Assembly (NCBI GenBank): GCA_963826115.1
Contig: CAWGVS010000012.1
Location: 544,001-608,000, forward strand
DNA: 64,000 nt
Origin: an uncultured Candidatus Rokubacteria bacterium
GTDB lineage: Bacteria > Methylomirabilota > Methylomirabilia > Rokubacteriales > DASRDR01
Reading direction: 5' to 3'
Position numbers and translations under genes: made by a program. This document shows positions 37,387-55,870 of the stretch, piece by piece; positions within the stretch are counted from its first letter, which is position 1, and every line of letters begins with the position of its first letter. Below the pieces are notes generated by a model. That model saw only the letters and a list, made by a program, of their open reading frames with translations, did no database searches and was not told the origin of the DNA.

Positions 37387-37557
37387 TGGTGCGCCGTGAA
37401 GAAATCGACCCTTCAACCGACTGATCAAGAGTCCCCGCAGGGGTCCACGCATCGCCACGCGTCAGGCCCCATCCGCCCGTCACACCGAGAACACGTCTTG
37501 CGTGTTCCCTCCCGTTCGTCGTCGTCCATCTCGGCGACTTGGCACCGTCGTGGAACC
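37387..37557 (-). mobile_element. att-like site 1: tRNA-Lys(CTT) 3' half (37387-37433) plus arm repeats
   Basis: 5 mismatches in 47 nt vs the copy at 54056; TGGCACC (37540) and TGGAACC (37551). Confidence 0.75.
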
Positions 37558-37581
37558 GGACTACGTGCCCCGCCGGGTCGG

Positions 37582-38679
37582 CTACTCCTCGAGGAGCACG
37601 CAGTCCCGGGGGTCGGCGCTGACGAAGACCTCCTCGCCCTCGGCCATCGGCTCCGATGCCGCCGAGCGCACGATGAGGCGCCGCCCGTCCCAGTCCACAT
37701 GGTATTGCGTGAAGTCGCCGTGGAACACGCGCTGCCGGATCCGGGCGGGCCACACGTTGACCGATCCGGGCGACGGCGCGCGCGCCAGGCGGAGGCGCAC
37801 GGTGCGGATGGCCACGAGCGCCTCGGCGCCGCTTCGGCGGTCGAGGGCGGTCCCGTGGAGGAGCGCGCCGCTCGGCGTCTCGATGACCACGAGCCCGTCC
37901 TGCTCGAGGTCGGGCCGCCGCCGGCCGCGGATGAGGTTCGCCGATCCGACGAAGTCGGCCACGAACGTGTTGCGCGGGCGGTCGTAGATCTCGGCCGGCG
38001 TCCCGACCTGCTCGATGGCCCCGTCCCGCATCACCACCACGCGGTCGGAGATGGCCAGCGCTTCCTCGAGGTCGTGGGTGACGTACACCGAGGTGATGCC
38101 GAGTCGGCGCTGGAGCTCCTTCAGCTCGACCCGCATCTCCGCGCGCAGCTTGGCGTCGAGGTTCGACAGCGGCTCGTCGAAGAGGAGCACCGCGGGGGAG
38201 AAGACGAAGGCGCGGGCGAGAGCCACGCGCTGCTGCTGGCCGCCGGAGAGCTTGGCGGCGCTACGGCGGCCGAGGTCACCCAGCTGGACCAGGTCGAGCG
38301 CCTCGCGCACCCGCGCCGTCACCTCCGCGTCCGGCCGCTTCCGCACCCGCAGGCCGTAGGCGACGTTGTCGAAGACGCTCATGTGCGGCCAGATGGCGTA
38401 CGACTGGAAGACCATCGAGAGTCCGCGGTCCTCGGCGGGAACGTTCACCCGCGCGGTGGACGAGAAGACCGGGCGACCGCCGATCCGGATCTCGCCCGAT
38501 GTCGGCCGCTCGAGGCCGGCGATCGCCCGCAGCGTCGTCGTCTTGCCGCAGCCCGAGGGGCCGAGCAGGGTCAGGTGCTCGCCCGCGCCGACGTCGAACG
38601 TCACCCCGCGCACCGCGACCACCGCGCCGTAGTGGACGGTCAGGTCGCGGACCTCGATCGATGCCTGGCGCGTGCTCAC
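37582..38679 (-). CDS. ABC transporter ATP-binding protein (Fe3+/polyamine type)
   Basis: [16 protein letters not shown] and FDEPLSNLD. Confidence 0.93.
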
Positions 38680-40376
38680 TCCGCTCCCGCCTGGACGGCT
38701 CGGCGCGCCGCCGCGAAGAGCACCGCCAGCGCGACGGCCACCGCCAGGGTCTGCAGCACGGCCAGCGCCGCGGTGAGCTCGGAGTGGGTGGAGAACCAGG
38801 ACTCGACGATGGCCGGCGTCAGGACCTTGGCCTTCGGTCCCATGAGCAGGATGGACGCGCCGAGCTCCCGCACGCTGGCGATGAAGAGCAGGAGCCACGC
38901 CGCGATCAGGCCCGGCCGGAGCAGCGGCATGGTGACGGTGCGCAGCCGGTAGCCCCAGCCCGCGCCGCACATCTGGGCGGACTCCTCGAGCGAGCGGTCG
39001 ATCTGGAGGATGACGCCCGCGATCGTCCGGAGCCCGAGCGGCAGGAACACGGTGAGGTATGCGATCAGGAGCAGCCACAGCGTGCCGTAGATGGGGATCG
39101 GGAAGACCAGCCACGCCCACAGCATCCCGAACGCAAAGACCAGGCGCGGCACCGCCTGCGGGAGCATCAGGAGGTACTCGATGGCGCCGGCGCCGGGCAG
39201 CCGCGAGCGATAGATCAGCCACGCGAGGAACCCCATCAGGGGGACGCCGATGCTCGCGGTGGCGACGCCGAGGAGGAGGCTGTTCCAGAGCGCGGACTGG
39301 ACCGCGTCGAGGGACAGGGCGGTCGCGTAGTTGGCCAGCGTGAAGTTGTCCCGGCGCGGCCAGAGCGTCGTCAGCCGCTGGAACGAGGCGTAGACGATCG
39401 TCAGCACGGGCAGGAACACGGCGACGACGAGGTACGCCACGCAGAGGGCGAAGAGCGGCCAGCGGAGGCCGCGGACGTCCAGAACGCGCGGGCGGAAGGC
39501 CTTGCCGGTGATGGTGGCGTAGGTGCCGCGGGTCACGATGCGGCGGTAGATCCGCACCATGGCGAACATCACGGCGAACAGCGCCACCCCCATGGCGGCC
39601 GCCGTCGGGAACCGCGGCGGGTACTGCGACACCATCTGGTACATCGCCGTGGTGACGACGTAGAAGCGGCTCGGGAGCCCCAGGACCAGCGCCGCCGAGA
39701 ACGAGCCCAGCATCTCGGCGAAGACGAAGATGGCGGCGCCCAGAACGCCGGGCAGGACCAGCGGCAGCGTGATCCGGAGCATGGTCCGCAGGCGCCCGGC
39801 GCCCAGCACCTGCGAGGCCTCCTCGAGCGCGGGGTCCATCGACTTCATCACGGCGGCGATCATCACGAAGGCCACCGAGCCCTCGAAGAGGGCCATCACC
39901 CACGCGATCCCCCAGGGCGTGTTGATGTCGATCAGGTGGCTCCGCCCCCCCAGCGCTCGCCAGAGCTGGTTCGCGAAGCCGCTGCTGGCCGAGCCGATGA
40001 GCGCCCACGCCAGAGCGCCCATGAGCGGGGTCACGTAGTAGGGCATGGCCATCAGCTGCTCGAGCGCGCCACGGCCGGGGACGTTCGCGCGCGAGAGAGT
40101 CCACGCCAGGGCGAATCCGGCGACCACCGCGAGGACGGTGGCCACGCTCGCCACCATCAGCGTGTTGCCGAAGATGTGGGCGTAGCGGCCGAGGCCCGTG
40201 AAGTTGTCGAGGCCGTACGCCTCCGGCGGGCGCGCCTGCGGGTCGCCCACGCTGAGCGAGGCCTGGATCAGATAGGCGATCGGGTAGAGAACCAGGGCGG
40301 CCGCGGCGCCGCTCACCACCAGGCTGACAAGGAGCGGGCCCGGCCGCCAGGACCGGGCCCGCCCCACGAGGTCCAC
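38676..40376 (-). CDS. Fe3+-type ABC transporter permease (duplicated TMD)
   Basis: Two EAA loops ([20 protein letters not shown]). Confidence 0.9.
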
Positions 40377-40386
40377 GGCGCGGGGC

Positions 40387-41487
40387 TCAGAGCCCCATGA
40401 GTGCGTTCCACTCCTTCACGAACACGGGATGGCTCGCCACGTAGTCGTTCCAGTCCGACGGGAACAGGAGCTTGAAGTCGGCGAGCCGCTTGCCGGTGGG
40501 CATCGGCTCGGCGTCCGTCCGCAGCGACCCGTAGAGGAGGATCTTCTGGTTCTGGTAGACGGCCTGGCCGCGCTTGGACAGCGCCCAGTCCACGAAGAGC
40601 TTCGCCGCCTCCGGATGGGGCGCCCGGTTGACCACCCCGATGAAGAACGACGTCGCCGGGAGCCCGTCGGTCGGCGCCACGAACTCGATCTCCGCGCCCT
40701 TCTCCGAGAAGAGCGTGTAGCCGGCGTACTCCGCCAGCACGCACATGCGATCCTCGCCCTTCGACAGCCGGTCGAAGAGCTGGGCGCGCGCGTCGAACCC
40801 CTTCGGCCGCTGCTTGGCGAACTCCTGCCAGAACTCGGCGCCGTAGAGCTTCCTCAGCATGTACCACTGGGCGTGCTGCATGCCCGACGTGGCGAGCTTG
40901 GCGCTGATCCCGTCCTTGTAGGCCGGGTTGAGGATGTCCTTCCACCCCTTGGGCGCCTGGTCCGCGGTCATCTTGGTGCGGTTGTAGGCGATGCCGGCGA
41001 AGGTCACGCCGCCCCAGCCGTAATAGCCCGCCGGGCTCGACTGGTGCTCGGGCTTGTACGCCGCGTACTCCGGCGAGAGGTACTGCTCGTACCCGCCCTT
41101 CTTCTGGAAGTCCATCGCCGGCGAGATGTCGGAGACCTGCAGCACGTCGACGCCGAAGCGCCCGGCCGACCGTTCGGCCGTGATCTTCGCGTAGAGCGCG
41201 CCGGTCTGGAGGCGCACGTAGCTCGTCTTGATCTTCGGGAAGTCCTTCTTGAACCCGTCGAGCAGGGTCGCGATCCCGGCCTCGCCGTCGTGGCCGTAGT
41301 ACACGACCTCACCCTCCTGCTCGGCCTTGGCGACGTCGGCGCCGGTCTGGAAATCCAGTACCTTCGTGCTGCGCACCTGGGCGGAGGCGACCGGCGCGCG
41401 TCCCAGGATCGACGCTCCCGCGGCGGCGAGGGCTCCGGTCGCGAGGAAGCGGCGCCGGCTGACAGGGAGGTTGCCAGGCTCAGCCAT
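40387..41487 (-). CDS. ABC transporter substrate-binding protein with Tat signal
   Basis: SRRRFL twin-arginine motif; APHPEAAKLFVDW. Confidence 0.88.
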   Translation of the reverse strand: MAEPGNLPVSRRRFLATGALAAAGASILGRAPVASAQVRSTKVLDFQTGADVAKAEQEGEVVYYGHDGEAGIATLLDGFKKDFPKIKTSYVRLQTGALYAKITAERSAGRFGVDVLQVSDISPAMDFQKKGGYEQYLSPEYAAYKPEHQSSPAGYYGWGGVTFAGIAYNRTKMTADQAPKGWKDILNPAYKDGISAKLATSGMQHAQWYMLRKLYGAEFWQEFAKQRPKGFDARAQLFDRLSKGEDRMCVLAEYAGYTLFSEKGAEIEFVAPTDGLPATSFFIGVVNRAPHPEAAKLFVDWALSKRGQAVYQNQKILLYGSLRTDAEPMPTGKRLADFKLLFPSDWNDYVASHPVFVKEWNALMGL

Positions 41488-41982
41488 GGGATCTCCTCCA
41501 AGTTGAGGATGTCGAACGGCGGGTTGGTCACCCCGTCCCCCGACACTATCACCGGATCGCGGACCAGTGCCAGCCGTCGATGTCCATCCGCCCGGCCACG
41601 GACAAGCCGGCCTTGGCGAAGATGACGTCGTCCTAGTGGAGGTGCACCCACTTGCCCACCGCACCGCGGCGGACGGGCGCCTCGGGTCCAATGGCCGTCG
41701 CGGGACCCGGCTACCTGCCACCGGAGCAGCAGGAGGCACGCGCGATCGCATTTCCGGGGCACGCGAGATCGGCCCGCGTCAGCGGGACGGAGGCGGTGGA
41801 GACAACCGCCCGCCAGGTCGCGAGGGCGGGAAAGAGGGCGGCATCGATCATTAAGTCCTTCTTACCATTCTGGTGAGAACGTTTCCCTGGACTACAGAGT
41901 CTCGGGTGGACAGGATGCGGCAACGCCAGGGCCACCGGTCGCCGTCTCGACGGCCGGACGAGCCTCGCGGAGGAGGCGCTTC

Positions 41983-42085
41983 ATGCCACGCACCCTGCTC
42001 GACAAGGTGTGGGACGCCCACACGCTTCGGACGCCGCCGTCCGGTCAAACCCGGCTCCTTGCCGGACTCCACCTCATCCACGATG
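41983..42085 (+). pseudogene. leuC: N-terminal relic of 3-isopropylmalate dehydratase large subunit
   Basis: RBS plus MPRTLLDKVWDAHT..GQTRLLAGLHLIHD, after which similarity stops. Confidence 0.75.
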
Positions 42086-42218
42086 GTGACGTCGCCGCAA
42101 GCCGTCCAGGCGCTCAAGCGGTGACGGCGCCCAAACGGCTCGAGGGCGCGCTCCGGACCCCGCTCGAGTGGGTGGTCGACATGAAGCTCGTTCTCAGCTG
42201 TTTCCCCCGGGGAGGACA

Positions 42219-43364
42219 ATGACACTCACCATGCAAGACTCGCTGACGCTCGGATTCTTCATCCAGCCGGTTCACCCGCCGGGCCGCCCCTACGCGGACG
42301 TTCTCCGCGAGGATCGCGAAGCCGTCGTGCTCGCCGATCGACTCGGCTATCGCGAAGCCTTCATCGGCGAGCATCTCGTCGACGCGGCCGAGACGATCAC
42401 CTCGAGCCTCGCGTTCATTGCGAGCCTGGCCGATGCCTGCCCGTCGATCACCTTCGGTACCGGCGTGCTTCCGCTTGCCAACTACCATCCGGCGATGGCG
42501 GCGGCGCAGGTCGCCATGGTCGACCATCTGGTCCACGGCCGGCTCGTGCTCGGAGTGGGGCCCGGCGTTCGCCCCGACGCGGAGGCGATCGGAGACCTGG
42601 GCTCGGATCGCAACCGAAAGACCCAGGAGGCGCTCGAGCACATGTGCCGGATCTGGAGCGAAGCGCCACCGTACCGGATCGAAGGCGAGTTCTACCGGAC
42701 CACCACGGAGGGCTCGTTCGATCCGCAGATCGGGGTCGGCGGCGCAGTCCGCCCGCTGCAACGGCCGCATCCGCCGATCGCCATCACCTCGATCCGCCCC
42801 GACGGCCGCGGCCCGCACGCGGCGGGAGCTCGCGGCTGGACCGGGATCTCGGCCAGCTACGTCGGCGCGTACGTCGTCCGCGCCCACATCCGGAGCTACC
42901 TGGAGGGCCGGCGCTCGGCGGGCCTGTCAGCCGACGCCTCCGGCTGGCGTGTCGCGCGCAGTGTCTTCGTCGCCGATGAAGACCTCACGGCGCGTCGCTA
43001 CGCGCATCGCGAGGACGGCGCCCACGGCTTCTACTTCCACGTGATGAAGACCAAGCTCGCGAAGGCCGGCGCCCTGGACGTGATGCGCGACTTTCGCGAC
43101 CAGCCGGATTCCGAGCTCTCGACGCAGCGGCGCCTCGAGCGGCTCGTGATCGCGGGGACCCCGGAGAGCGTCGCGGACCAGATTCTCGAGTTCCGCAACG
43201 AAGTCGGCGCGTTCGGCACCTTGCTGTACACGGGACACGACTGGACCGATCCGGCGCTCGCCCGGCGCTCGATGGAGCTCATGGCGAACGACGTCTGGCC
43301 CCGGATCGATCGAGCCCTGCGTGAGACGACACCGCGAACGGGTGGAACGGGACGCCCTGATTGA
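42219..43364 (+). CDS. LLM-class flavin-dependent monooxygenase
   Basis: ADRLGYREAFIGEH, FGTGV, LQRPHPPI and IAGTPESVADQI. Confidence 0.88.
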   Translation: MTLTMQDSLTLGFFIQPVHPPGRPYADVLREDREAVVLADRLGYREAFIGEHLVDAAETITSSLAFIASLADACPSITFGTGVLPLANYHPAMAAAQVAMVDHLVHGRLVLGVGPGVRPDAEAIGDLGSDRNRKTQEALEHMCRIWSEAPPYRIEGEFYRTTTEGSFDPQIGVGGAVRPLQRPHPPIAITSIRPDGRGPHAAGARGWTGISASYVGAYVVRAHIRSYLEGRRSAGLSADASGWRVARSVFVADEDLTARRYAHREDGAHGFYFHVMKTKLAKAGALDVMRDFRDQPDSELSTQRRLERLVIAGTPESVADQILEFRNEVGAFGTLLYTGHDWTDPALARRSMELMANDVWPRIDRALRETTPRTGGTGRPD

Positions 43365-43450
43365 GGGACATCCACATGTCGCCAAGCGCAATGCCGGCAA
43401 GCCGGCGCATCGTTCAGATATGCCCGTCGTGGTAGGAGGTGATACGCCCA

Positions 43451-44238
43451 ATGCGTCGAGGGTGGATCGGAAATGCGTTCGCCGACGGCGTCGAGCTCTC
43501 GCGGTTGCGCGCGCTGGAGGGAGTCTGGGACGAGAACACGTGCGCGGTTCTAGGTGAGCGAGTGATGGTGCAGCGCGGCTGGCGCTGCCTCGAATTGGGC
43601 GCCGGAGCCGGGTCGATCGCGCGCTGGCTGGCCGACCGGGTCGGGCCCTCGGGGTCGGTGGTTGCCGCCGATCTGAACTGCAGGTTCCTGGTCGACATGC
43701 CCAGCAACGTCGAGGTTCGCGCTCTGGACGCCGCCGACGCGGAGTTCGGCCGCGAAGCCTACGACCTTGTCCACCATCGCTCGGTGCTCTCGTACGTCTC
43801 GAGCCGAGAGCAGGTGCTTGGCCGCCTGGTGGAGAGCCTGCGGCCGGGCGGGTGGCTGGTGAGCGAGGAGCCGGACTTCCAGTACCGAGTCGTCGCGGGT
43901 GATTCGCACGATCGTCTTCTGGCGCGGTTCTTCGAGGCGCTACGTCAGATTCTTGCCGCAGCGGGCACCGACTTCTCTTTTGCGCCTCGCCTCGCGATTC
44001 TGCTCCGGGGTCTCGGTCTGCACGACGTGGATCAGCTCGCCCGGAGCCACGCGGTACAGGGCGGCAGCCCGATGTCCGAAGTGATCTGGCGAGCGGTGGA
44101 ACCGCTCCGGTCGCAGCTGCTGCACGTCGCGGGCTTCACGGACGATGAGGTTGACCGCAGCACGCGCTGCTTCGGAGCCGCGCCGCGTCGTGGATCGATC
44201 CGTCGGTCATATCCGCGTTCGGTCGGCGGCCGGCTTGA
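43451..44238 (+). CDS. Class I SAM methyltransferase, probable frameshift near the 3' end
   Basis: CLELGAGAGS and LRPGGWLVSEE; a natural-looking end (SWIDPSVISAFGRRPA*) lies in another frame. Confidence 0.75.
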
Positions 44239-44493
44239 GGCCACCGCCGAGTCGATCCGCGGGATGACGGCATCCATTGACGACTTCTGTGCGGACATCC
44301 CCAGGCGGATCCGAGGGTGGAGCATGTCCGCGGCGTCGGCGGCTCGCCCATTCACCGGGGCAGCCGGAGACAGCAGCGCCATGGCTGTCCACTGCCCCAC
44401 CCGCGGGTCGTCACGCACCCGGAGTCGATGTTGAGGGCGCGCTCGACGATCTCTCGGGTCCGGTCGGCAAAAATGGATTAGAGTGTCCGGAGC

Positions 44494-45705: not shown

Positions 45706-45924
45706 GGGCCGCTCGGTGCATCGAGGGCCACGCCGGACACGCGCTCGAGGACCGGTAAGGGAACCCCGGCGGGCCGGAGACCGGTCCAGGCGCCGGATCG
45801 GACCATCGGTCGCTCTCAGCCCTTAGCGCTTCGCTCGAACCAGGCCGGCCGGTACCATGCCGGCGCGGTTGTTTCGTGCACCGGGACGAACAGCGGAACC
45901 GAGCAAGCAATCTACCGACTGATG

Positions 45925-47906: not shown

Positions 47907-48454
47907 CGAGAGAACCCCACCGGCACGACCTGACGCTCCTCTTCGCTGGCCTGGAAGAGCTCGGCCGGGCCGAATCCGAACGTGCGGGCCACCAGGAGAT
48001 CCGGAATGCGCTGGATGCCGTTGTGATAGTCGCGCACCGACCCGTTGTAGAACCGGCGGGCGTACTGCAGGTGGTCCTCGATCTCGACGAGATCGCGCTG
48101 GAGCTGGAGGAACGTCTCGTTCGCCTTGAGGTTGGGATACGCCTCCTGCAGCACGATGATCCCGGCCAGCGCCTGCTGCAGGGCCGACTCCACCTCGCCC
48201 AGCCGGGACGGGCTCCGGAGGGCCGCCGCCTGCGTCCGCAGCTCGGTGACCCGCTCGAGCGCGCCGCGCTCGTGGGCCGCGTACCCGGTGACGGTGGCCA
48301 CGAGATCGGGCACCAGGTCGTGGCGGCGCTTGAGCTGCACGTCGATGTCGGCCCAGGCCGACCGCACCTGGTTGCGCAGCCGCACGAGTCGGTTGAACAC
48401 GAACACGGCCCAGGCCAGGATCGCCAGACCGACCAGGAGCCAGACGACGGTCAC
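47903..48454 (-). CDS. lemA: LemA family protein
   Basis: AWADIDVQLKRRHDLVP, EAYPNLKANE and ARRFYN. Confidence 0.92.
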   Translation of the reverse strand: MTVVWLLVGLAILAWAVFVFNRLVRLRNQVRSAWADIDVQLKRRHDLVPDLVATVTGYAAHERGALERVTELRTQAAALRSPSRLGEVESALQQALAGIIVLQEAYPNLKANETFLQLQRDLVEIEDHLQYARRFYNGSVRDYHNGIQRIPDLLVARTFGFGPAELFQASEEERQVVPVGFSR

Positions 48455-48518
48455 CGGCCCACCGTGGCGCCGGACGGAGAACGGGCCCATGCGTCCATGC
48501 TTCGCTTCCCGCCGTAAT

Positions 48519-48745
48519 CTATTGACGGCGCGACCGGAATGCAAACGCCGATCGGCGCGGGCGAGGGTCGTCGCGGGTCACCGCGTACAGGACGGCGTGG
48601 AGGCCGAAGACATCCACGTCGCGCTCGTAGCGCAGGCCGAGCTTCTCCAGCACGTGGCGCGACCGCGCGTGCTCAGGGCGGGTCCCGCCGACGACCCGGG
48701 ACAGCCCCACCTCGTCGAAGCCGTAGTCGCCGTCGGCCACGGCCG
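48519..48745 (-). pseudogene. C-terminal fragment of a RimJ/RimL-type GNAT acetyltransferase
   Basis: YGFDEVGLSRVV..SRHVLEKLGLRYE; N-terminal part missing. Confidence 0.65.
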
Positions 48746-48876
48746 TGAGCGCGGAGAGGCGCGCGACGGTCGAGCCGTCACCGGCAGCAGCGGCGGCGCC
48801 GGTCGCGCCGGCCCCATTGCGGCGTGAAGCGCTTCCTGGGGGCGGCGGTAGCGGCAGGGAAAGGGACCGCGCCGGG

Positions 48877-49707
48877 TTACTTCAGGACCACGGCGGTGAT
48901 CTCGTCGTCGACGCGCCAAGTCCCGCCCTGGTTGACGAGGATGGCCTCGCCGGTGAGCTTCAGCACGCTCGATTCGCCGTCGAACAGGATTACCGCGGCC
49001 TTCCCGTTGCTCCAGCCCTTGGTGATCCTCACCGATTGCGTGGGGTGCTCCTTCGCCAGGTAGTCCATGTACGCCGCGCCCCTCCCTCCTTTGATGGCCC
49101 TGGCCTGGATCTCGCGGACGTCGTCCGACAGCACGGTCCGCAACGCCTTGGCGTCGCGTTTCACGAGCGCGGCGTGATAGTCGAGGTAGGCTTGGCCGGG
49201 CGCACCGCCGGCCGGCGGAAGCGGGGGGCCGTGGTCGTCGGACAGCACCGCCACGTCGAGGGCAATGTCGAAGGCGCGATTCGTGTCGGTACCCGTGAGC
49301 TTGCCCGCGAGGCGGCCCTTCGCGAGCTTGACCGTCGTGGCGATCCCCATGTTGCCGCCGCAATAGCCACAGCCGTTGCCCGAGGCAAAGTGGAAGGAGT
49401 AGCCCTGGTAGTCGCCGTCGGGGTGGAACTCGAAGTAGACCACGCCCGTGTCGTTGTCCTCGACGCGCCGCGCGATCGCCCGGCGGCGATCGTAGTAGGC
49501 GTGGAGGGCGTCCCGGTCTATCTCCGCGAGGGTGACGGCGACGACGATCACGTCGCTCTTGTCCAGTATCGACTTGCCGCGGAAGGCGAGCGCGCTCTTG
49601 ATCTCCATCCCCAGACCCCGACTCTTGAACGACCCCGAGACCGTGTCCGCGGCCGCCGCGGATCCCACCCACGCCGCCAGCGTCGCCGCAAGCAGAAGCG
49701 TCTTCAT
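48877..49707 (-). CDS. Secreted hypothetical protein with GCGYCGG motif
   Basis: Signal peptide MKTLLLAATLAAW; strong coding bias. Confidence 0.75.
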   Translation of the reverse strand: MKTLLLAATLAAWVGSAAAADTVSGSFKSRGLGMEIKSALAFRGKSILDKSDVIVVAVTLAEIDRDALHAYYDRRRAIARRVEDNDTGVVYFEFHPDGDYQGYSFHFASGNGCGYCGGNMGIATTVKLAKGRLAGKLTGTDTNRAFDIALDVAVLSDDHGPPLPPAGGAPGQAYLDYHAALVKRDAKALRTVLSDDVREIQARAIKGGRGAAYMDYLAKEHPTQSVRITKGWSNGKAAVILFDGESSVLKLTGEAILVNQGGTWRVDDEITAVVLK

Positions 49708-49798
49708 TGTGGCCCCCCCCTTTGGATGACCAGACATCCTACTGCGACAGCATCAGCGCGGCTACGACGGCGAGAAGCGGCACGCGCGGCTTGCCGGG

Positions 49799-49832
49799 AA
49801 GAACGAATCGGGGGGCGTCGCCGCCCCCGATC
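49799..49832 (-). terminator. Intrinsic terminator downstream of tRNA half 2
   Basis: ATCGGGGGCG-GCGA-CGCCCCCCGAT followed by TCGTTCTT. Confidence 0.7.
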
Positions 49833-49850
49833 GAGGCCCCCGCCGCGAAG

Positions 49851-50021
49851 TAGTGCGCCGGGAAGGAATCGAACCTTCAACCTACTGATTAAGAGTCCAC
49901 GCTGGAGGCCACGCACCGCACGCCATCGGCAGCTATCTGCACGTCAGATCAAGGAAGCGCCCTGAGACGACCTGTTCCCGCCTCACGGTGCCCTCGCGTG
50001 AGTTGGAACCAGCCTGGAACC
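49851..50021 (-). mobile_element. att-like site 2: tRNA-Lys(CTT) 3' half (49851-49897) plus arm repeats
   Basis: 3 mismatches vs the 54056 copy; TGGAACC at 50004 and 50015. Confidence 0.8.
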
Positions 50022-50162
50022 AGGACCGCCCCGCGATGGGGGCGCGCGCAGCGGCCACTGCCTGGCGGTGTCCATTGACGGCAGGGAGGGCGGCTGGTGA
50101 TAGTCTCACATGCTCGAAGACCGTGGCGTCACGCCACGAAGTCCCCCCCCAGAGGCCGGTTG

Positions 50163-51716
50163 ATGCTCGACATCGCCGATGCCCGGGCTGGCGCACGCCT
50201 GCTCCGGCGACTCCCCCCGTTTCTGAAGAGGCCCATCACGGCGGAGGAGGCGCGAGCGACGCTGCGCGATCGCCTCGAACACCGTGACGCGGATTTCCTC
50301 ACGCTCGCGCGCCGGTTGATCTTCGGCCACACGGTCAGTCCCTACCGCGCCCTTCTCCGCATGGCCGGCTGCGAGTACGGAGACCTCGAGCGACTCGTCA
50401 AGATCGGCGGTCCGGAAAGCGCGCTCGCCACCCTCGCCGGCCAAGGGGTCTACCTGACCGTGGACGAGTTCAAGGGGCGGCGACCTGTGGTCCGCGGGAG
50501 CACGCACCTCCTTCCCGACCCTCGCGCATTCACGAATCCCCTGTGCGCGCCCGACGTGCCAGGCCGCAGCAGCGGGAGCCGCGGCGCCGCCACACCCGTC
50601 CTCGTCGCGCTCGACTACATTCGCGACTGCGGCGTCGATACCCGTCTCACACTTGATGCCCGCGGTGGCGGAGACTGGCTGAAGGCGTACTGGGGCGTGC
50701 CGGGCGCGTCGGCGACAGTCGTGGTCCTTCGCCTGAGCGCCTTCGGAGCCCCTGTCGTGCGCTGGTTCTCACAGATCGATCCCTGGGCACGCGGGCTCGA
50801 CGCCCGCTACGGATGGAGCGTGACGGGCCTCCGGTGGGGCAGCATCCTCGCCGGCCGTCCTATTGCCGCTCCCGAGTTCGTCAGCGTGGACGACCCGCGC
50901 CCCATCGTCCGATGGATGGCCGACGTACGGAGATCGGGGCGGACTCCATTCCTCCAGACGTTTCCAACCTCGGCGGTGCGACTCTGTCAGGCCGCGCTCG
51001 CCGCCGGCGCCGACATTACGGGCGCGAAGATGATCATGGGGGGGGAGCCGACCACCCGCGCGCGGCTCGCGACCATTCGGCAGGCCGGCGTGGACGCCGT
51101 CCCGCGGTACTCCAGCATCGAGTGCGGGCCGATCGGGCACGGATGCCTCAACCCCGAGGCGCCCGATGACATCCATCTCCTCCATGATCTCCACGCGGTC
51201 GTGCAGCATACCGGCACCGATCTCCTCGTCTCGTCCCTGCGGATGACGGCACCCCTCGTGCTCTTCAACGTCTCCCTCGGCGACCGCGCCACCCTTCGAC
51301 GGCGTGACTGCGACTGTCCGATGGAACGGCTGGGCTGGGACACGCACCTCCAGGGCATCCACAGCGTGGAGAAGCTGACGGCGGCCGGGATGACCTTCCT
51401 GGATTCCGACTTGGTCCGGGTGCTCGAGGAGGTCCTCCCCGCTCGCTTCGGTGGCGGGCCGGCCGACTATCAACTGGTCGAGGGTGAGGACGCCGGCGGC
51501 CGATCGACACTCCGGTTGCTCGTCCATCCACGGCTCGGCGAGGTGCCCAGCGAAGCCGTGGCCGAGGTCTTTCTCTCGGCCGTCGGTCCGGGCGCGGGGG
51601 TCGAGCGCGTGATGGGGCTCGCCTGGCGCCAAGGCCGCATCCTTCGCGTGGAACGGCGCGCACCCCTCGTCTCGACGACCGGCAAGATCCTGCACCTGCG
51701 TGCCGGAGCACAATGA
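50163..51716 (+). CDS. Phenylacetate-CoA ligase/CapK-like adenylating-fold protein
   Basis: RSSGSRG loop, YSSIECG, NVSLGD and TGKILH. Confidence 0.7.
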   Translation: MLDIADARAGARLLRRLPPFLKRPITAEEARATLRDRLEHRDADFLTLARRLIFGHTVSPYRALLRMAGCEYGDLERLVKIGGPESALATLAGQGVYLTVDEFKGRRPVVRGSTHLLPDPRAFTNPLCAPDVPGRSSGSRGAATPVLVALDYIRDCGVDTRLTLDARGGGDWLKAYWGVPGASATVVVLRLSAFGAPVVRWFSQIDPWARGLDARYGWSVTGLRWGSILAGRPIAAPEFVSVDDPRPIVRWMADVRRSGRTPFLQTFPTSAVRLCQAALAAGADITGAKMIMGGEPTTRARLATIRQAGVDAVPRYSSIECGPIGHGCLNPEAPDDIHLLHDLHAVVQHTGTDLLVSSLRMTAPLVLFNVSLGDRATLRRRDCDCPMERLGWDTHLQGIHSVEKLTAAGMTFLDSDLVRVLEEVLPARFGGGPADYQLVEGEDAGGRSTLRLLVHPRLGEVPSEAVAEVFLSAVGPGAGVERVMGLAWRQGRILRVERRAPLVSTTGKILHLRAGAQ

Positions 51717-51822
51717 CCCTTCTCCTCGCGCCGCCGTTCCGTCCCCCGCCCCTCGGGAGGGCCGCCGGCACCCCGCCAAGGGCTCGGCCCGCCGTCGAGA
51801 TTGGCGAGCCCCTGTGCGTTGA

Positions 51823-53718
51823 TCACGGGGTCACCGTCGCTCGCCGGTGTCTAGCCGGGTGGCGGAACAGAACGTCCCAGAGCTGCACGCCCAGCACCAT
51901 CAGCAGGAGTCGGGCGTGGAGGGTCCTCCCCGCTCGGATGTCCGTGACCAGGCCCTGGACGACCGCGGGCTCGAAGTAGCCGGCCGCCTTGACGCTCGCC
52001 GGCGACAGGAGGTCGTCCGCGAACGCCGGTAGCGGACCGCGGAGCCATGCCTCGATCGGCGCCATCAGCGGACGCTTCCGCCGCCACAGGATGTCGCGCG
52101 GCAGCACGCCTTCCAGGGCGCGCCGCAGGACGTACTTCTCGCGCAGGCCGCGCAGCTTCAGTGAGAGCGGAATCCGGGCGCACAGCTCGACGAGCTCGTG
52201 GTCCAGGAACGGAACCCGCGCTTCGAGACCGTATGCCATGCTCGCGGCGTCGAGCGTGTGGTTGATGTATGCGGGCAGGCGCAGGGTCATGTCGAGCTGC
52301 TGGAGCTGGACGAAAGGGTCTTGCCCGGAAGGCCCCACTGGCTGCTGGCCGCCATCGATTCCATCGGCCCCGAGCTCGTGCCGGATGTCGGCCGAGAAGA
52401 CTGCCTCTCTCCGCTCGCCGCCCAGTGGGCCAACGAGCCGGGCGTAGCGGGCGGGCCCCATCGAGCGCGGCCCGAGCAGGAGCCGGCGGGCGAACGACCG
52501 CCGGGCTGGGCCCAGCGGCGCGAGCAGGACCGCGCGTTGGAGCGGGACCGGCAGCGTCGCGAGCGGCCGGAAGAGGCGGTCGATCAGGAACCAGAGATAG
52601 CCGCCGAGCGCCTCGTCCGCGCCCTCGCCGGTGAGGACCACCTTGACGCGCCGGGCCGCCGCCTCCGACAGGAGCAGCCGGAGGAGACCGAGCAGCCCCC
52701 CCGCGGGTGTCTCCGTGTGCCAGAGCGCCTCGGGGTACCGCTCGAAAGCACGGCGGTCGCAGGGGACGCGCTCGTTGGGGAGCTCGTACCCCGGGATGCG
52801 GTCGAGCGTCCGTTGACCGCGCGTCTCGTCGAACGCGGCATCGTCGAAGGCAAGCGTGAACGTGGGAAGCGGCCCGACGAGCTTCCGGGCGAGGCTCACC
52901 ACGGCGCTCGAATCGACCCCACCGCTCAGCCAGGCGCCGACCGGTACGTCGGCGCGAAGGTGGAGACGCACGGTCTCCTCGAGCTTCTCCCGGAGGCGCT
53001 CGGCCCACACACGGGCGCCAATGTGGTCCTCGCAGACGGCGACGTCGCCGTACCGCCAGTATCGGCGCAAGGTGACGTGTCCCCCCTCGTAGAGCAACCA
53101 CTGGCCCGCCTCCAGGCGGCGGACGGAACGGAGCAGGGTCCGCGGGTCCAGCACGAAACCGAAGGCGAAGAGTTCGTCCAGGGCGCGCACGTCCAGTTCC
53201 CTCGCCACCCCACCGGCGGCGAGGATGGCTTTGATCTCCGAGCCGAAGTAGAGCCCCTCGACCGTCAGGGCATAGTGAAGCGGCTTGATTCCCAGGCGAT
53301 CGCGGACGAGCCACAGGCGTCGGCGTGCGCTGTCCCAGAGCGCGAAGGCGAACATTCCGCGCAAGCGTCTGACGCTCTCGAGCCCGAGCTCCTCGTACAG
53401 ATGGACGAGAACCTCGACGTCCGAGGTCGAACGGAAACGGTGCCCCCTGGCAGTCAACTCAGCACGGAGCTCCGCATGGTTGTAGATCTCGCCGTTGCAG
53501 ACCACGGTCACGGTCCCGTCCTCGTTCCCCATGGGTTGGTCCCCGGTCACGAGGTCGATGACGGCCAGGCGCTGAATGCCCAAGCTCACACCCGGGCCGA
53601 CGTGGAAGCCCTCCCCGTCGGGCCCGCGATGGCGGAGCGTCGCGGCCATGGAGTCGACGAGGACGGCATCGCCCGGGCGTTCTCGATCCGCCCATGCAAC
53701 CCCCGTGATGCCGCACAT
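51823..53718 (-). CDS. asnB: Asparagine synthase (glutamine-hydrolysing) family amidotransferase
   Basis: MCGI start, HRGPDG, NGEIYN, LSGGVDSS, TGEGADE and EARVPFLD. Confidence 0.93.
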   Translation of the reverse strand: MCGITGVAWADRERPGDAVLVDSMAATLRHRGPDGEGFHVGPGVSLGIQRLAVIDLVTGDQPMGNEDGTVTVVCNGEIYNHAELRAELTARGHRFRSTSDVEVLVHLYEELGLESVRRLRGMFAFALWDSARRRLWLVRDRLGIKPLHYALTVEGLYFGSEIKAILAAGGVARELDVRALDELFAFGFVLDPRTLLRSVRRLEAGQWLLYEGGHVTLRRYWRYGDVAVCEDHIGARVWAERLREKLEETVRLHLRADVPVGAWLSGGVDSSAVVSLARKLVGPLPTFTLAFDDAAFDETRGQRTLDRIPGYELPNERVPCDRRAFERYPEALWHTETPAGGLLGLLRLLLSEAAARRVKVVLTGEGADEALGGYLWFLIDRLFRPLATLPVPLQRAVLLAPLGPARRSFARRLLLGPRSMGPARYARLVGPLGGERREAVFSADIRHELGADGIDGGQQPVGPSGQDPFVQLQQLDMTLRLPAYINHTLDAASMAYGLEARVPFLDHELVELCARIPLSLKLRGLREKYVLRRALEGVLPRDILWRRKRPLMAPIEAWLRGPLPAFADDLLSPASVKAAGYFEPAVVQGLVTDIRAGRTLHARLLLMVLGVQLWDVLFRHPARHRRATVTP

Positions 53719-54015
53719 GGCGCCCGCTCCTCTCCCCCGACCCGTCGAGACGTCAGCGGGTCTGCCGGTATCCCTCGCGCCCGACGCTGGCGGTGGAGCG
53801 CTCGACCGAGAACTCGGGCGGTCCGGTCCTTGCCAGCTCCGACGCCGGTGGCGCGACGGATCGACCCCGGTGCTGCTGGACCCGCTGAGTTGCTCGAGCG
53901 CTTGCCGGCCCTCATGCCATAGCTCGAGCAGCCGGTCCCGGGCGCCCGGCGCGCAGCCCGACGATAGCGCACCCCACGGCGCGGGACGAGGGGCCGTGGA
54001 CGACCGATCATCTCC

Positions 54016-54052
54016 AAGAAAAACGAATCGGGGGCGTTGCCGCCCCCCGATC
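54016..54052 (-). terminator. Intrinsic terminator downstream of tRNA half 3
   Basis: ATCGGGGGGCG-GCAA-CGCCCCCGAT followed by TCGTTTTTCTT; homologous to 49799-49832. Confidence 0.75.
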
Positions 54053-54055
54053 AAG

Positions 54056-54227
54056 TGGTGAGCCGTGAAGGAATCGAACCTTCAACCTACTGATTAAGAG
54101 TCGGTTCGGGGCCCGAACTCCTACGCACTCAGGAGGAGCTAAGGCCACGACTTTTCTACGCGGCAGCGTGACGGATGTTCGCCTGCGTGGGGCGGAGTTC
54201 GCTTGAGTTTGGCACTGGTATGTCACC
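54056..54227 (-). mobile_element. att-like site 3: canonical tRNA-Lys(CTT) 3' half (54056-54102) plus arm repeats
   Basis: GACTCTTAATCAGTAGGTTGAAGGTTCGATTCCTTCACGGCTCACCA with no 5' half; TGGCACT (54210) and TGTCACC (54221). Confidence 0.85.
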
Positions 54228-54450
54228 GAGATTCGAGAGCTCCCACAGACCGAGCCACGGCCCATCGGGCCGCCTGGGACCTCGCGTCCTCGGACGCCTT
54301 CCCAGCGCCCTCGCGAACCTGCCGTCCTTCACATTCGTCCTGGGCCCATGTGGCGACATCGTCACCTAGCCGTCTGCCCGCCGATTGACGACGCATTTCG
54401 CGTCGAGAACAATGGGGCGGTCGTCCGCCGGCTCGGGTGCGGGGAGGCGC

Positions 54451-54515
54451 GTGCGAGACCAGGCGCCGGGGTCATCGTCGGTGGCGGTATCGCCGACTGC
54501 AGCATCGTCTACCAC
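54451..54515 (+). pseudogene. N-terminal relic of a GcvT/sarcosine-dehydrogenase-like FAD oxidoreductase
   Basis: GGGAGG RBS, MRDQA../VIVGGGIADCSIVYH with a frameshift. Confidence 0.55.
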
Positions 54516-54586
54516 GAGAGCGCGATGGGCCCGTTCAGAAATGCGCCAGTGTATGGCCTTTCCTTCGGGCTCACTCGGGAGGTGAG

Positions 54587-55582
54587 TTGCGTAAGACTCG
54601 ACGCCGGCAGTTTCTGATCGAGGCGGGCGCGCTCCTGGCGGCGCCGCTTCCGGGGTTCGCCCAGCAACCAGCCGCGACGGTCCCGCGAATTGGGTTCCTG
54701 GGAGTGGCCACGCCGGCGGCGTGGGCGACCCGCGTCGATGCGCTTCAAGCGGGATTTCGCGACCTGGGCTACATCGATGGCAAGAACCTCGTCATCGAGT
54801 ATCGCTTTGCGCAAGGTCGGTACGATCGTCTTCCCGAGCTCGCGGCCGAGCTCGTTCGCCTCAATGTCAAAGTCATCGTGACACACTCGTCACTGGGTGC
54901 CGTCGCCGCGAAGCAGGCAACCGCAGCGAATCCGATTCCCGTCGTCATGACGAATGTCGGCGATGCCGTGGGGTTTGGCCTCGTTGCGAGCCTCGCGCGC
55001 CCTGGCGGCAACATTACCGGCGACACATTCTTCACTTCCGAGATCGCGGCGAAGCGACTCGAGCTGCTGAAGGATGCGGTTCCGAACGTACGCCGCGTGG
55101 CCATCCTGGCAAATCCGGACACCCTCGTAACGGCGCCCGCCATCCAAGCCATGGAAGTCGTGGCCAAGGCGCTGAAGGTGGCGCTGCAGCGCTTCGACGT
55201 GCGGGATCCCGCTGCCCTGGACGCCGCGTTCAGCTCAATGGCGCGGGACAATCTTGACGGGCTCACCGTGATCGAGGACGTCAAGCTCATCAGCAGCTTC
55301 AAGAGAATTGCGGAGGTTGCGATCAAGCTCCGCCTCCCGTCGATTGGCTTTGTCGACTATGCCGACGCCGGAGGACTCTTCGGCTACGGCGCGGATTTTC
55401 TCGCCTTGTATCGCCGCGTCGCGGTCTTCGTGGACAAGGTCCTCAAAGGCACCAAGCCCGCGGATATCCCGATAGAGCGAGCCACCAAGTTCGAATTCGT
55501 AGTCAACCTGAAGACGGCCAAGGCACTTGGCCTCACCATTGCGCCGGTAATCCGATTGCGCGCGGAACGAATCATTGAATGA
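54587..55582 (+). CDS. ABC transporter substrate-binding protein (ABC_sub_bind type), orphan
   Basis: RRQFL signal; LVASLARPGGNITG and PTKFE-like ATKFEFVVNLKTAKALGL. Confidence 0.9.
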   Translation: MRKTRRRQFLIEAGALLAAPLPGFAQQPAATVPRIGFLGVATPAAWATRVDALQAGFRDLGYIDGKNLVIEYRFAQGRYDRLPELAAELVRLNVKVIVTHSSLGAVAAKQATAANPIPVVMTNVGDAVGFGLVASLARPGGNITGDTFFTSEIAAKRLELLKDAVPNVRRVAILANPDTLVTAPAIQAMEVVAKALKVALQRFDVRDPAALDAAFSSMARDNLDGLTVIEDVKLISSFKRIAEVAIKLRLPSIGFVDYADAGGLFGYGADFLALYRRVAVFVDKVLKGTKPADIPIERATKFEFVVNLKTAKALGLTIAPVIRLRAERIIE

Positions 55583-55699
55583 CCAGGCGCGGCGCGGTTC
55601 TTGGTACGTCGACCGACCCTCAGCTGAAGAAAAGGCCGAGCGACCCGACAATGGCGACCTAGCGTCCATCGCCAATCGCGCTCGGAATGCAGAAGCGAG

Positions 55700-55870
55700 T
55701 GGTGAGCCGTGAAGGAATCGAACCTTCGACCTACTGATTGAGAGACCGCCGGCGGACGTGAGCCACGCCAGTCCAGACCAACGGAGACCAAGTCTTTCAC
55801 GGGCTTCACCCGCCCTCTTCTGGGTCTGGTTGGGCGGGCACGGCGCAGGTTCTCGGACAATTCTCGGACA
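55700..55870 (-). mobile_element. att-like site 4: tRNA-Lys 3' half (55700-55746) plus arm repeats
   Basis: 3 mismatches vs the 54056 copy; TTCTCGGACA at 55850 and 55861. Confidence 0.8.

Follow-up and report, generated by a model that had tools for sequence, protein, structure and literature searches.

Probable serial accretion of integrase-less cargo islets at the single-copy tRNA-Lys(CTT) gene of an uncultured Candidatus Rokubacteria genome

The window analysed here, i.e. the whole 64,000-nt stretch of DNA under study, represents positions 544,001 to 608,000 of contig CAWGVS010000012.1 (hereafter C12) of an uncultured Candidatus Rokubacteria bacterium. The four tRNA halves it contains were confirmed to be the distal part of a 13-islet array situated at one tRNA gene. 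The locus is probably a tandem accretion array at a single-copy tRNA-Lys(CTT) gene, whose integrase modules were later lost and of which non-autonomous, CIME-like cargo islets remain.

A 25-nt probe taken from the copy at 54056 matched the window at exactly four sites, all on the minus strand (37387, 49851, 54056 and 55700), and gave no match in any of 100 shuffled sequences. Within the 6.24-Mb genome the same probe detected 14 sites, all on the minus strand of C12 (581387-647525) and none elsewhere. The fourteenth site belongs to the 3' end of a tRNA-Lys(CTT) gene that is intact (C12 647501-647576, equivalent to window positions 103501-103576), which lies 39.5 kb past the window end and is the only one of its kind among the 64 tRNAs of the genome. 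Downstream of it stand 13 co-oriented, displaced 3' halves, which together with the intact gene cover 66 kb (C12 581387-647576) and delimit 13 islets of 1.0-12.4 kb. Each half, as read from the sequence, comprises 47 nt that begin on the 5' side of the anticodon loop and extend to the CCA, and the point at which tRNA homology starts agrees within 2-3 nt in all copies.

The preliminary description had reported four co-oriented minus-strand halves with 5, 3, 0 and 3 mismatches to the 54056 copy, and both the probe search and inspection of the sequence bear this out; the intervening segments, given there as about 12.4, 4.2 and 1.6 kb, measure 12417, 4158 and 1597 bp. It had also proposed that these attR-type halves were stacked downstream of an intact minus-strand tRNA-Lys(CTT) beyond position 64000, and the gene was indeed found there. 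The stack is real, but it consists of 13 islets instead of three, and the tyrosine integrase that was to be looked for further to the right is present only as a 3' remnant. ARAGORN predicted just two tRNAs in the window (Leu at 13846 and Ser at 32475), with none at the four halves and, in keeping with the earlier claim, no 5' halves between them; an Rfam search of window positions 36000-64000 yielded no match at E<=0.01. A tRNA-like structure formed by the halves and the A arms was considered and rejected, as both programs were silent and the arm, judged by eye, is unable to pair with the 3' strand of the anticodon stem. The features of the window are as follows (positions are those of the window).

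35730-37142, minus strand: CoA-transferase family III gene, 470 aa (Pfam PF02515, E=5.8e-53), the chromosomal flank just distal to the last half (B' side)
37387-37433, minus strand: tRNA-Lys(CTT) 3' half no. 1, the most distal and most diverged (5 mismatches)
37434-37560, minus strand: P arm of family E, from alignment, extent approximate
37434-49850, no strand: islet 1, 12417 bp, 70.0% GC (Pfam scans, GC)
45920-45974, minus strand: relic of a family-A P arm (distal part) with no adjoining tRNA half; 86-88% identity to A arms over 50-57 nt (blastn)
49851-49897, minus strand: tRNA-Lys(CTT) 3' half no. 2, 3 mismatches
49898-50023, minus strand: P arm of family B; its direct-repeat pair is GGTTCCAGGCTGGTTCCAAC (50002-50021)
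49898-54055, no strand: islet 2, 4158 bp, encoding a 539-aa protein without a Pfam family and an asparagine synthase (743 aa)
about 54018-54055: terminator-type P' arm at the tRNA-proximal end of islet 2
54056-54102, minus strand: tRNA-Lys(CTT) 3' half no. 3, identical to the 3' half of the intact gene
54103-54245, minus strand: P arm of family A; its repeat pair is GGTGACATACCAGTGCCAAAC (54207-54227)
54103-55699, no strand: islet 3, 1597 bp, 63.8% GC, essentially a single-gene cassette (ABC substrate-binding protein of 381 aa, plus a 64-aa ORF)
55700-55746, minus strand: tRNA-Lys(CTT) 3' half no. 4, 3 mismatches
55747-55870, minus strand: P arm of family D; its repeat pair is TGTCCGAGAATTGTCCGAGAAC (55849-55870)
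55747-64000, no strand: the part of islet 4 (10.5 kb) inside the window; it continues past the window end to C12 610274

Every half proved to be an attR-type junction, with a P arm of 120-150 nt on its 5' side and a terminator-containing arm of about 60-70 nt on its 3' side. The P arms fall into five sequence families (seven copies of A, three of B and one each of C, D and E), none of which was found by blastn in the genome outside the array. In families A-D a direct-repeat pair is located at a constant distance, 103-125 nt upstream of the half, so that the block of identity is flanked by attP-derived arms with arm-type repeats; these repeats may bind integrase. Two short hairpins of the A arm showed no compensating changes across the seven copies when the alignment was examined by eye. 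One P' family, T2, carries GCTACCA repeats, and most arms of this type end at about 66-72 nt, just past the repeats. The T1 P' arm is paired with P arms of all five families. The halves and terminators constitute a near-identical direct repeat of 47-90 nt every 1-12 kb. The array also contains relic arm pieces without halves. The relic at 45920-45974 marks a lost junction, and islet 1 is probably two fused islets.

The islets hold from one to about ten genes on both strands, their cargo being miscellaneous metabolic, transport and regulatory genes. Islet 1 encodes an ABC ATPase, a permease and a solute-binding protein, a luciferase-like monooxygenase, a methyltransferase, a DUF2207/LemA protein, a GNAT fragment and a SnoaL-like protein; islet 4 carries genes for an AMP-binding-like protein, a GT1 glycosyltransferase, an amidohydrolase, a 1365-aa sigma54-AAA+/AAA_16/TPR regulator and a second CoA-transferase. 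The GC content of the islets ranges from 63 to 71% against 72% for the genome, and the array as a whole (67.8% versus a median of 72.1%) is the lowest 66-kb stretch of the genome, none of 279 such windows being as low, which marks its composition as foreign. GC3 of long ORFs, a set that includes spurious frames, was not clearly different between the array and the rest of the contig (p=0.06).

A six-frame search of the array with PF00589 revealed one match only, a C-terminal remnant, while the other 12 of the 13 islets gave none. PF00239 had no match in the whole array, neither profile matched in its window part, and no recombinase was detected when 61 ORFs lying within the array or immediately next to it were scanned against Pfam. 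The earlier statement that no integrase was present stands for the window part and needs a single exception for the full array: the 3' remnant of a tyrosine integrase gene occupies C12 629413-629733, where it adjoins the half at C12 629691 on the P' side and converges with the tRNA. The remnant shares 74% identity with residues 317-423 of a 431-aa protein and covers positions 112-165 of the 172 of PF00589. Its full-length relatives adjoin tRNA-Lys(CTT) in other genera, one of them at the equivalent position beside a tRNA-His/Arg(CCG)/Lys(CTT) cluster. A cognate full-length integrase was not found in the array genome or in nine other genomes of the genus examined; the best full-length relatives within the genus are only 36-37% identical, and no intact integrase lies near any tRNA-Lys(CTT) site of the ten genomes. 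Two proteins of 214 and 164 aa beside the intact tRNA were considered as a split, divergent integrase and rejected, having no Pfam match at E<=0.01 and no resemblance to a recombinase.

The T2-type P' arms contain integrase 3' remnants of differing length, whereas no parent element was found for the T1-type arms, which most islets possess. In a search for a helper, the 46-nt type-A junction had no exact match in viral contigs and occurred exactly in four stretches of metagenome contigs and eight of genome contigs; among those examined, an integrase match was present on L066 only, and that integrase is truncated. In the case of the G021 integrase, phage and plasmid collections gave only distant relatives (<31% identity).

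Three other species of the genus (Rokubacteria-labelled MAGs G012, G015 and G016) possess arrays of 12-19 sites with the arm families and architecture of the array genome, and a comparable array is found on a separate 157-kb metagenome contig. The recurrence of this architecture in independent assemblies makes misassembly unlikely. Arms related to family E are present at G016 523803 and at G015_C7 22627/37972, and a stretch of the CoA-transferase flank is 90% identical over 610 nt to the DNA immediately beyond the final half in the G015 array. The order and content of the arrays vary between species. None of the 45 islets bounded by two halves in the four species encodes a full-length integrase, and only one has any PF00589 match. 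Nevertheless, some integrase-less islets are common to species at 93-96% identity in the company of different neighbours, while the flanking core is 80-90% identical, which implies that at least some islets moved after integrase loss. The preliminary description had advised a comparison of relatives at the halves, and the boundaries of the shared segments do coincide with them. A 1.6-kb integrase-less cassette, for example, is shared by G015 and G016 (95.8% identity) with halves at both ends and different neighbours on either side, and three further shared islets have one end at a half; in G016, a half is missing beside a shared cassette.

Under the favoured reading, tyrosine integrases of the lambda type, representing five attP families or more (P arms A-E), would have inserted circular elements successively into the anticodon-loop region of the tRNA-Lys(CTT) gene. 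At each insertion the tRNA would be rebuilt from the element's own 3' half and the earlier half displaced outward as attR, each islet representing a linearised circle that reads P' arm, cargo, P arm. Because older halves are pushed out each time, the newest islet should lie by the gene and the oldest by the CoA-transferase flank. The GC content of the islets tends to be higher the more distally they lie (Spearman rho -0.60, p=0.03, n=13), and divergence is also high in the two halves farthest from the gene: with 5 and 3 mismatches they belong to the most diverged copies, although the fourth half likewise has 3. Islet 3, at 63.8% GC, is an exception to the gradient. Subsequently, the integrase modules would have been deleted, leaving 13 att-flanked, non-autonomous islets of CIME-like structure, and internal deletions would have remodelled the array by fusing islets. 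Species would have traded whole islets at the att boundaries, through an external integrase or through homologous recombination in the repeated att sequence. The array, its arm families, the integrase remnant with full-length relatives at this tRNA, the foreign composition and the shared islets were all observed directly; the order of events, integrase binding by the arm repeats and the route of exchange are inferred.

Decay in place is indicated by integrase remnants of unequal length, by relic arms and by broken cargo genes (among them a 97-aa HerA_C piece and the C-terminal half of a kinase). Plain decay, however, does not easily explain why full-length integrases are missing from all bounded islets while 10 of the 14 probe sites of the array genome are perfect and cargo ORFs of 743, 1171 and 1365 aa remain open. 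The complete arms retained on single-gene islets of 956-1597 bp, the T2 P' arms that end alike and the shared integrase-less islets are awkward for it as well. The age of the halves could be masked by gene conversion, with the live tRNA as the template that maintains their identity.

These observations lend some support to a different reading, which we regard as possible yet doubtful, namely that the locus is an active tRNA-anchored cassette system. The non-autonomous islets would be moved by a cognate tyrosine integrase acting in trans from a helper (phage, plasmid or ICE) that is absent or unbinned, the sole requirement in cis being an attP of some 265 nt made up of P arm, tRNA half and P' arm; the locus would then be a gene-capture platform analogous, not homologous, to an integron. 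Plasmids and phages are often lost in MAG binning. Beyond the want of an intact integrase in the bounded islets and near the tRNA-Lys(CTT) sites of all ten genomes, mobilisation in trans is favoured by the intact arms of the smallest cassettes, by arms trimmed to the stretch from the outer repeat pair to the core, by the shared islets ending at halves amid a more divergent core, and by the dissimilar arrays of the different species. On the other hand, no helper was found, the remnant has only remote relatives within the genus, and the type-A junction is unmatched in the viral collection. The unequal integrase remnants among T2 arms suggest independent decay in place, and the promiscuous pairing of T1 with P arms A-E implies that in many islets the two arms may not be cognate. 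Also against it are the relic arms, the loss of some halves, the broken genes, and the occurrence of genes in both orientations, which leaves no shared promoter logic; homologous recombination in an identical repeat of 47-90 nt could explain the exchange equally well. Mobilisation of the islets in trans is possible, and it is only tentatively that tRNA-Lys(CTT) could be regarded as the docking site of a natural gene-cassette system, in which cargo of 1-12 kb with a minimal attP is inserted in trans by integrases of several specificities and traded between species.

Homologous processes might also have built most of the array, through unequal crossing-over, segmental duplication and allelic replacement after DNA uptake, with one or a few true integrations and the halves serving as portable homology. 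The closely spaced direct repeats would suit such a process, shared islets do end in repeats, and a pair of P' extensions in G016 shares 97% identity across 291 nt. This origin nonetheless seems unlikely, since five unrelated P-arm families and several P' families, with their own repeat pairs at a conserved distance, call for many independent attP donors; the composition is foreign, and no long cargo duplication was detected within the array (blastn matches there are arm or junction sequence).

Four public runs (Logan contigs) were inspected over window positions 37100-57000, the best covering 0.32 of the sampled words. Joints at the halves were seen from 49895 to 54169 (skipping 4273 nt, one contig, with a side of 29 nt) and from 49824 to 55712 (23 other letters in between), both low-depth, imprecise and below the reliability guide, and of no weight on either side as regards excision or misassembly. 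An assembly or binning artefact, in which strain variants or foreign contigs were chained at a repeated tRNA fragment, is highly improbable: although the genome is a MAG with 5.3% estimated contamination and the read data are short low-depth contigs, none convincingly spanning a junction, the array sits within an 880-kb contig whose core genes on both sides are syntenic with relatives, comparable arrays occupy long contigs of three species and the separate metagenome contig, the sequence of each islet is unique and no repeat reaches 300 nt.

The closest known systems include the CIMEs of streptococci. Pavlovic and colleagues reportedly described in 2004 both CIMEs and the tandem accretion of ICESt1/ICESt3-type elements. 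Described CIMEs occur as one or two beside a functional ICE able to mobilise them. Like these deletion derivatives of integrative elements, the islets are att-flanked, devoid of recombination and transfer genes and in tandem with related elements; unlike them, they lack a functional partner in the genome and form an array longer by an order of magnitude. In Dehalococcoides, as described by McMurdie et al. (2011, PMC3146451), tandem islands are found no farther than 100 kb downstream of a single small-RNA gene, 16 of 31 keep an integration module and the 15 without it were proposed to be cis-mobilizable. Direct repeats of the 3' end as limits, conserved sequence beside the repeats and variable content (there between strains) are common to both systems; according to that account, however, Dehalococcoides uses ssrA as the target, a 20-bp repeat and the serine integrase DsiB, in place of the tRNA-Lys(CTT), 47-nt half, tyrosine integrase remnant, at least five arm families and lack of any intact module seen here.

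The arrangement also conforms to the tDNA islands of the Islander survey as outlined by Hudson et al. (2015, PMC4383910), i.e. an intact tDNA with co-oriented displaced 3' fragments, crossover in the anticodon loop, an attP of about 250 bp and a gene regenerated from the element's copy. It departs from the islands described there in having 13 islets at one tRNA and an intact integrase in none, nor do the islets each have a tyrosine integrase beside the att site. By the description in that survey, an island was counted only if it held its own integrase, and tandems of three or more were noted in just four cases among 2168 genomes; since such a pipeline requires an integrase, the present array would go unreported.

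Of the two alternatives put forward in the preliminary description, the integron-like array mobilised in trans is doubtful; the defining features of integrons are absent, and the array is not an integron. The likeness to chromosomal integrons is one of outcome only (a long one-sided stack, short and mostly integrase-less units, a repeated site and content that differs between species). No intI, attI or Pc was found, and there is no PF00589 match near the tRNA end of the array, beside which ORFs encode a membrane protein, an HTH/DinB protein and glycosyltransferases; the 553-aa protein encoded 5' of the tRNA cluster looks like a polytopic membrane protein. In place of folded attC sites, the units are separated by tRNA 3' halves that bear lambda-type, direct-repeat arms, and the cargo comes in units of 1-10 genes in both orientations without a common promoter, not as mostly single, promoterless, co-oriented ORFs.

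The locus is an unusually large example of a known gene-gathering route, in which almost all islets are without their own insertion enzyme. Tandem tRNA islands are well known, but three or more in tandem are rarely reported by surveys that require an integrase; with 13 islets here, up to 19 sites in a relative and no working integrase, standard island finders would miss this locus. It offers sequence-defined att sites, five arm families and one identified integrase lineage. If mobilisation in trans were true, an integron-like cassette economy would have been reached by a second, independent route, the locus would be a source of new tRNA-directed integrase/att pairs, and tRNA-Lys(CTT) as a docking site would amount to a functional analogue of the integron made from parts of lambda-type integrases. 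In this uncultured soil phylum, a single tRNA gene can hold about 1% of the genome as a fast-changing store of accessory genes.

A 25-nt probe derived from the tRNA-Lys(CTT) 3' half at window position 54056 matched the window at four positions, 37387, 49851, 54056 and 55700, all on the minus strand, and none of the shuffled windows (n=100) gave any match. The halves are 47 nt long and run from the anticodon loop through the 3' strand of the anticodon stem, the variable region and the T arm to the 3' acceptor strand and CCA; as stated in the preliminary description, they are co-oriented and carry 5, 3, 0 and 3 mismatches, respectively, relative to the 54056 copy. At these four positions ARAGORN detected neither a tRNA nor a 5' half, and the Rfam search of window positions 36000-64000 produced no match at E≤0.01. 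The search of the whole host genome (6.24 Mb, 72% GC, 12 contigs) with up to three mismatches allowed yielded 14 sites, all located on the minus strand of contig CAWGVS010000012.1 (C12) within 581387-647525, and none elsewhere. One of them belongs to an intact gene:

C12 647501-647576, minus strand: intact tRNA-Lys(CTT), the 3' end of which is the 14th probe site

The remaining sites therefore represent 13 displaced halves, which delimit 13 islets. The intact gene, predicted beforehand to lie past position 64000, was found 39.5 kb beyond the window end, so that the anchoring of the array at this tRNA is real, although the structure as a whole proved to be larger than the four genuine window halves had implied. 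The gene is present in a single copy (1 among 64 ARAGORN tRNAs in the genome), with tRNA-Arg(CCG) directly upstream. From the distal end (the side of the CoA-transferase flank) to the proximal one (the side of the intact tRNA), the islets measure 12417, 4158, 1597, 10528, 2639, 8579, 2352, 1231, 4380, 4622, 6370, 956 and 5674 bp. Two further minus-strand tRNA genes, tRNA-Leu(TAG) (13846-13932) and tRNA-Ser(CGA) (32475-32567), are situated in the window upstream of the array.

The distal flank, with its CoA-transferase gene, shares 90% identity with the sequence immediately beyond the last half, on the distal side, in G015, one of three other species of the genus (G012, G015 and G016) with similar arrays; the two arrays thus terminate at one and the same chromosomal position. 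This seemingly chromosomal flank may itself be an older islet with a decayed outer junction. A CoA-transferase III gene is found just distal to a half twice, in the flank (window 35730-37142) and at the proximal end of islet 4 (C12 608741-610126), and the two proteins share 52% identity. At the other side of the array, the 3-kb stretch between tRNA-Arg(CCG)-Lys(CTT) and tRNA-Arg(TCG)-His encodes a 553-aa membrane protein and a 335-aa frame (C12 647820-648824, minus strand; 13820-14824 of locus L011), in which IS481-type transposase HTH/leucine-zipper domains are joined to DinB/MDMPI_N. The stretch is partly conserved in G012 (82% identity), and the His-Arg(CCG)-Lys tRNAs are contiguous in other genera.

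The alignment of all sites in tRNA orientation (250 nt upstream and 200 nt downstream) revealed that the tRNA homology starts at the 5' edge of the anticodon loop, at the same point within 2-3 nt. Upstream of this point the intact gene continues into its own 5' half, whereas every displaced half is preceded by a conserved arm of ~120-150 nt (the P arm), which falls into the following families (C12 positions of the minus-strand halves):

598056, 610275, 621587, 625264, 629691, 634360, 641780: family A, 7 copies, direct-repeat pair GGTGACATGCCAGTGCCAAAC
593851, 623986, 640777: family B, 3 copies, direct-repeat pair GGTTCCAGGCTGGTTCCAAC
612961: family C, 1 copy, direct-repeat pair GGCTACCGACCGGCTACCAAC
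599700: family D, 1 copy, direct-repeat pair TGTCCGAGAATTGTCCGAGAAC
581387: family E, 1 copy, loosely B-like

In families A-D the distance between the repeat pair and the half is nearly constant (103-125 nt). Downstream of CCA, most copies possess a P' arm of type T1, consisting of a terminator hairpin and ~20 nt more, while type T2 (629691 and 634360) is distinguished by another hairpin, after which comes a GCTACCA repeat pair. Neither P nor P' arm sequences were found elsewhere in the genome. Judged by sequence, this layout is what successive integrations of circles with a lambda-type attP would leave as attR-type junctions; the P arm upstream of a half would come from the newer element and the P' sequence downstream from the older one. 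The sum of P (~150 nt), half (47 nt) and P' (~66 nt) is roughly the 250 bp given for attP in the Islander survey (PMC4383910). By analogy with the known architecture of such sites, the arm repeats are putative integrase binding sites.

Two observations outside the present genome may be added here. In G016 (contig C10, 468600-468666, locus L014) a family-B repeat pair lies directly 3' of the terminator of one half, resembling an "empty" cassette in which a P' arm is joined to a P arm; the following half was not detected. An identical 46-nt tRNA-Lys half occurs on the plus strand of a contig labelled as an Acidobacteria MAG (L041, position 3126) and of a short metagenome contig (L069, position 519), with upstream arms unlike any family of the present arrays; they may represent further element families, or another lineage may simply have the same tRNA sequence.

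The absence of an integrase ORF, claimed earlier for the segments between the window halves, extends to 12 of the 13 islets, and the remaining one retains a tyrosine integrase 3' remnant (C12 629413-629733). The six-frame PF00589 search of the whole genome gave 10 hits, of which only one (C12 629404-629568) is inside the array; it belongs to a 184-aa open frame with integrase-like sequence in the last ~90 residues only (PF00589 positions 112-165 of 172). This remnant adjoins the P' side of the half at 629691 and is convergent with it. The array has no PF00239 hit, and no recombinase or transposase was detected when 61 ORFs from it and its immediate surroundings were scanned with Pfam (52 ORFs were called by codon-position GC and 10 frames were taken from gaps). 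Comparison of the remnant with 151 genomes of the order (including the unpublished G083 and G055) revealed full-length relatives in other genera, of which the best is a 431-aa protein with PF14659 and PF00589 from G021 (locus L050, 3510-4805); its gene is convergent with the tRNA-Lys(CTT) of a His-Arg(CCG)-Lys cluster and overlaps the 3' end of this tRNA gene. In tblastn this integrase matched the array only once, at 629413-629733 (residues 317-423, 74% identity), and its nearest match in the rest of the genome is a broken frame (C12 792377-792733, 41% identity). Since the remnant matches a full-length integrase residing at the same tRNA in another genus, the integrase lineage of the T2/A elements is identified. 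No working copy of this lineage is present in the genome under study, and no cognate full-length integrase was found in it or in nine other genomes of the genus; in five genomes of the genus beyond G012, G015 and G016, no PF00589 hit was located near a tRNA-Lys(CTT) site.

Probe counts with at most one mismatch in 21 genomes of the family reached 12 in the present genome, 19 in G012, and 12 each in G015 and G016; in 11 other, often fragmented, genomes of the genus they were 0-3, and in other genera 0-1 per genome. In the sister family (127 genomes, including the unpublished G083 and G038) a probe for its own tRNA-Lys variant gave 0-5 per genome. Type-A junction loci in the named genome collection are labelled as uncultured Candidatus Rokubacteria MAGs. 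The arm families (A, B, D, E and others) and P' types recur in the G012, G015 and G016 arrays. Not one of the 45 islets bounded by two halves in the four genomes (for the three relatives, in the array stretches examined) contains a full-length PF00589 frame, the sole scoring one being that with the remnant described here. One further weak integrase remnant lies just beyond a half in G012, and a separate 157-kb metagenome contig has an A/T2 junction adjoining a truncated integrase.

All-against-all blastn of the arrays revealed segments shared between species (islets at 93-96% identity, with ends at halves), in agreement with the earlier view of the halves as segment boundaries:

610263-612951 in the present genome and 491220-493908 in G016: islet, 95.2% over 2692 nt; ends 12 and 10 nt from halves in the former, one end 13 nt from a half in the latter, where a deletion has removed the half expected at the other end
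21059-22684 in G015_C7 and 525394-523780 in G016: islet, 95.8% over 1629 nt; halves at both ends in each genome, neighbours different; luciferase-like gene, split in G015
38727-44243 in G012_C3 and 28174-22623 in G015_C7: islet, 93.4% over 5563 nt
619338-621227 in the present genome and 30444-28555 in G012_C30: stretch, 95.9%; inside a 2.3-kb two-half islet in G012, the end of an 8.6-kb islet in the present genome

The core DNA flanking the tRNA cluster in the same genomes is 80-90% identical. Judging from these alignments, islets that had already lost the integrase were evidently transferred between species as whole units. As to the route, the product would be the same whether recombination was site-specific, in the half, or homologous, in the 47-90 nt identical repeat.

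The cargo, encoded on both strands, includes ABC transporter parts, luciferase-like monooxygenase, methyltransferase, LemA/DUF2207, asparagine synthase, GT1 glycosyltransferase, amidohydrolase, two large AAA_16/TPR regulators, CoA-transferase, AraC/SnoaL/SDR, GMC oxidoreductase, acyl-CoA synthetase, DUF2079, APH kinase, class-III aminotransferase, DinB, SCO1, BBE oxidase and others (Pfam), along with fragments such as a HerA_C piece (97 aa), the C-terminal half of a histidine kinase and a GNAT piece (73 aa). The GC content of the array is 67.8%, whereas the genome median is 72.1%, and a value this low is reached in 0 of 279 66-kb windows; all 13 islets (63.0-70.9%) are below the genome mean. 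Islet GC tends upward toward the distal end (rho -0.60, p=0.03, n=13), which fits older islets having drifted toward host composition, islet 3 being an exception. The pair of halves at the distal extreme also ranks among the most diverged, one having 5 mismatches and the other 3 (as many as the fourth half). Both large regulators are STAND-like: that of islet 4 (1365 aa, sigma54-AAA+/AAA_16/TPR) extends from window position 60183 past the window end to C12 608280, and that of islet 10 (1171 aa, zinc ribbon/adenylate cyclase/AAA_16/TPR) occupies C12 630712-634227. Their relatives recur in the G012, G015 and G016 arrays at 70-76% nucleotide identity, together with a 0.8-kb stretch in G012_C30 that is 91% identical. 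The summed metagenome contig depth rises 50-100-fold over window 37764-39091 in all four runs, with many short skips and loose ends; the rise coincides with an ABC-transporter ATPase gene (37585-38823, minus strand) and is probably due to cross-mapping of a conserved domain from many organisms.

Taken at the level of sequence, the array probably arose by accretion followed by integrase loss, its islets now being non-autonomous and exchanged only occasionally. Decay in place is indicated by T2 P' arms which keep integrase 3' remnants of unequal length (none past the GCTACCA repeats, ~130 nt, ~250 nt and ~570 nt), by broken cargo genes, by the mixing of P' and P families (T1 is found with A, B, C, D and E), by the lack of a cognate integrase in the genomes examined, and by relic arm pieces without halves:

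window 45920-45974: A-arm piece, inside islet 1
C12 634626-634706: B-arm piece

An actively trans-mobilised cassette system is less likely, yet several features speak for continuing or recent mobility: there are zero intact integrases despite near-perfect halves and open long cargo ORFs, both arms persist in single-gene islets, T2 arms end at a common point just past the repeats, and integrase-less islets have been swapped across species at att boundaries. That the repeats spread mainly by homologous processes is improbable, and an artefactual array is hardly credible.

Tandem islands at tDNAs are an established phenomenon. The Islander survey (PMC4383910), in which an integrase was required in each island, lists 3919 islands in 2168 genomes, including 125 tandems with at least two islands and 4 with at least three. 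The closest parallel found among published systems is provided by the ssrA island arrays of Dehalococcoides (PMC3146451), where tandem islands are marked by 28 direct repeats; 16 islands have a serine-recombinase module, and 15 without it were proposed to be cis-mobilizable elements joined by accretion. The Rokubacteria array differs from these in its target, tRNA-Lys(CTT), in the recombinase class (tyrosine), in the number of attP families gathered at its single site (five or more), in the lack of any intact integration module, and in size (13 islets, and up to 19 sites in a relative). As to the likeness to an integron, proposed earlier, the array lacks every defining integron feature tested. 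The literature collection searched contained no description of the present locus. The array is a new, extreme form of the tandem accretion of att-flanked islands at a tRNA gene, in an uncultured phylum.
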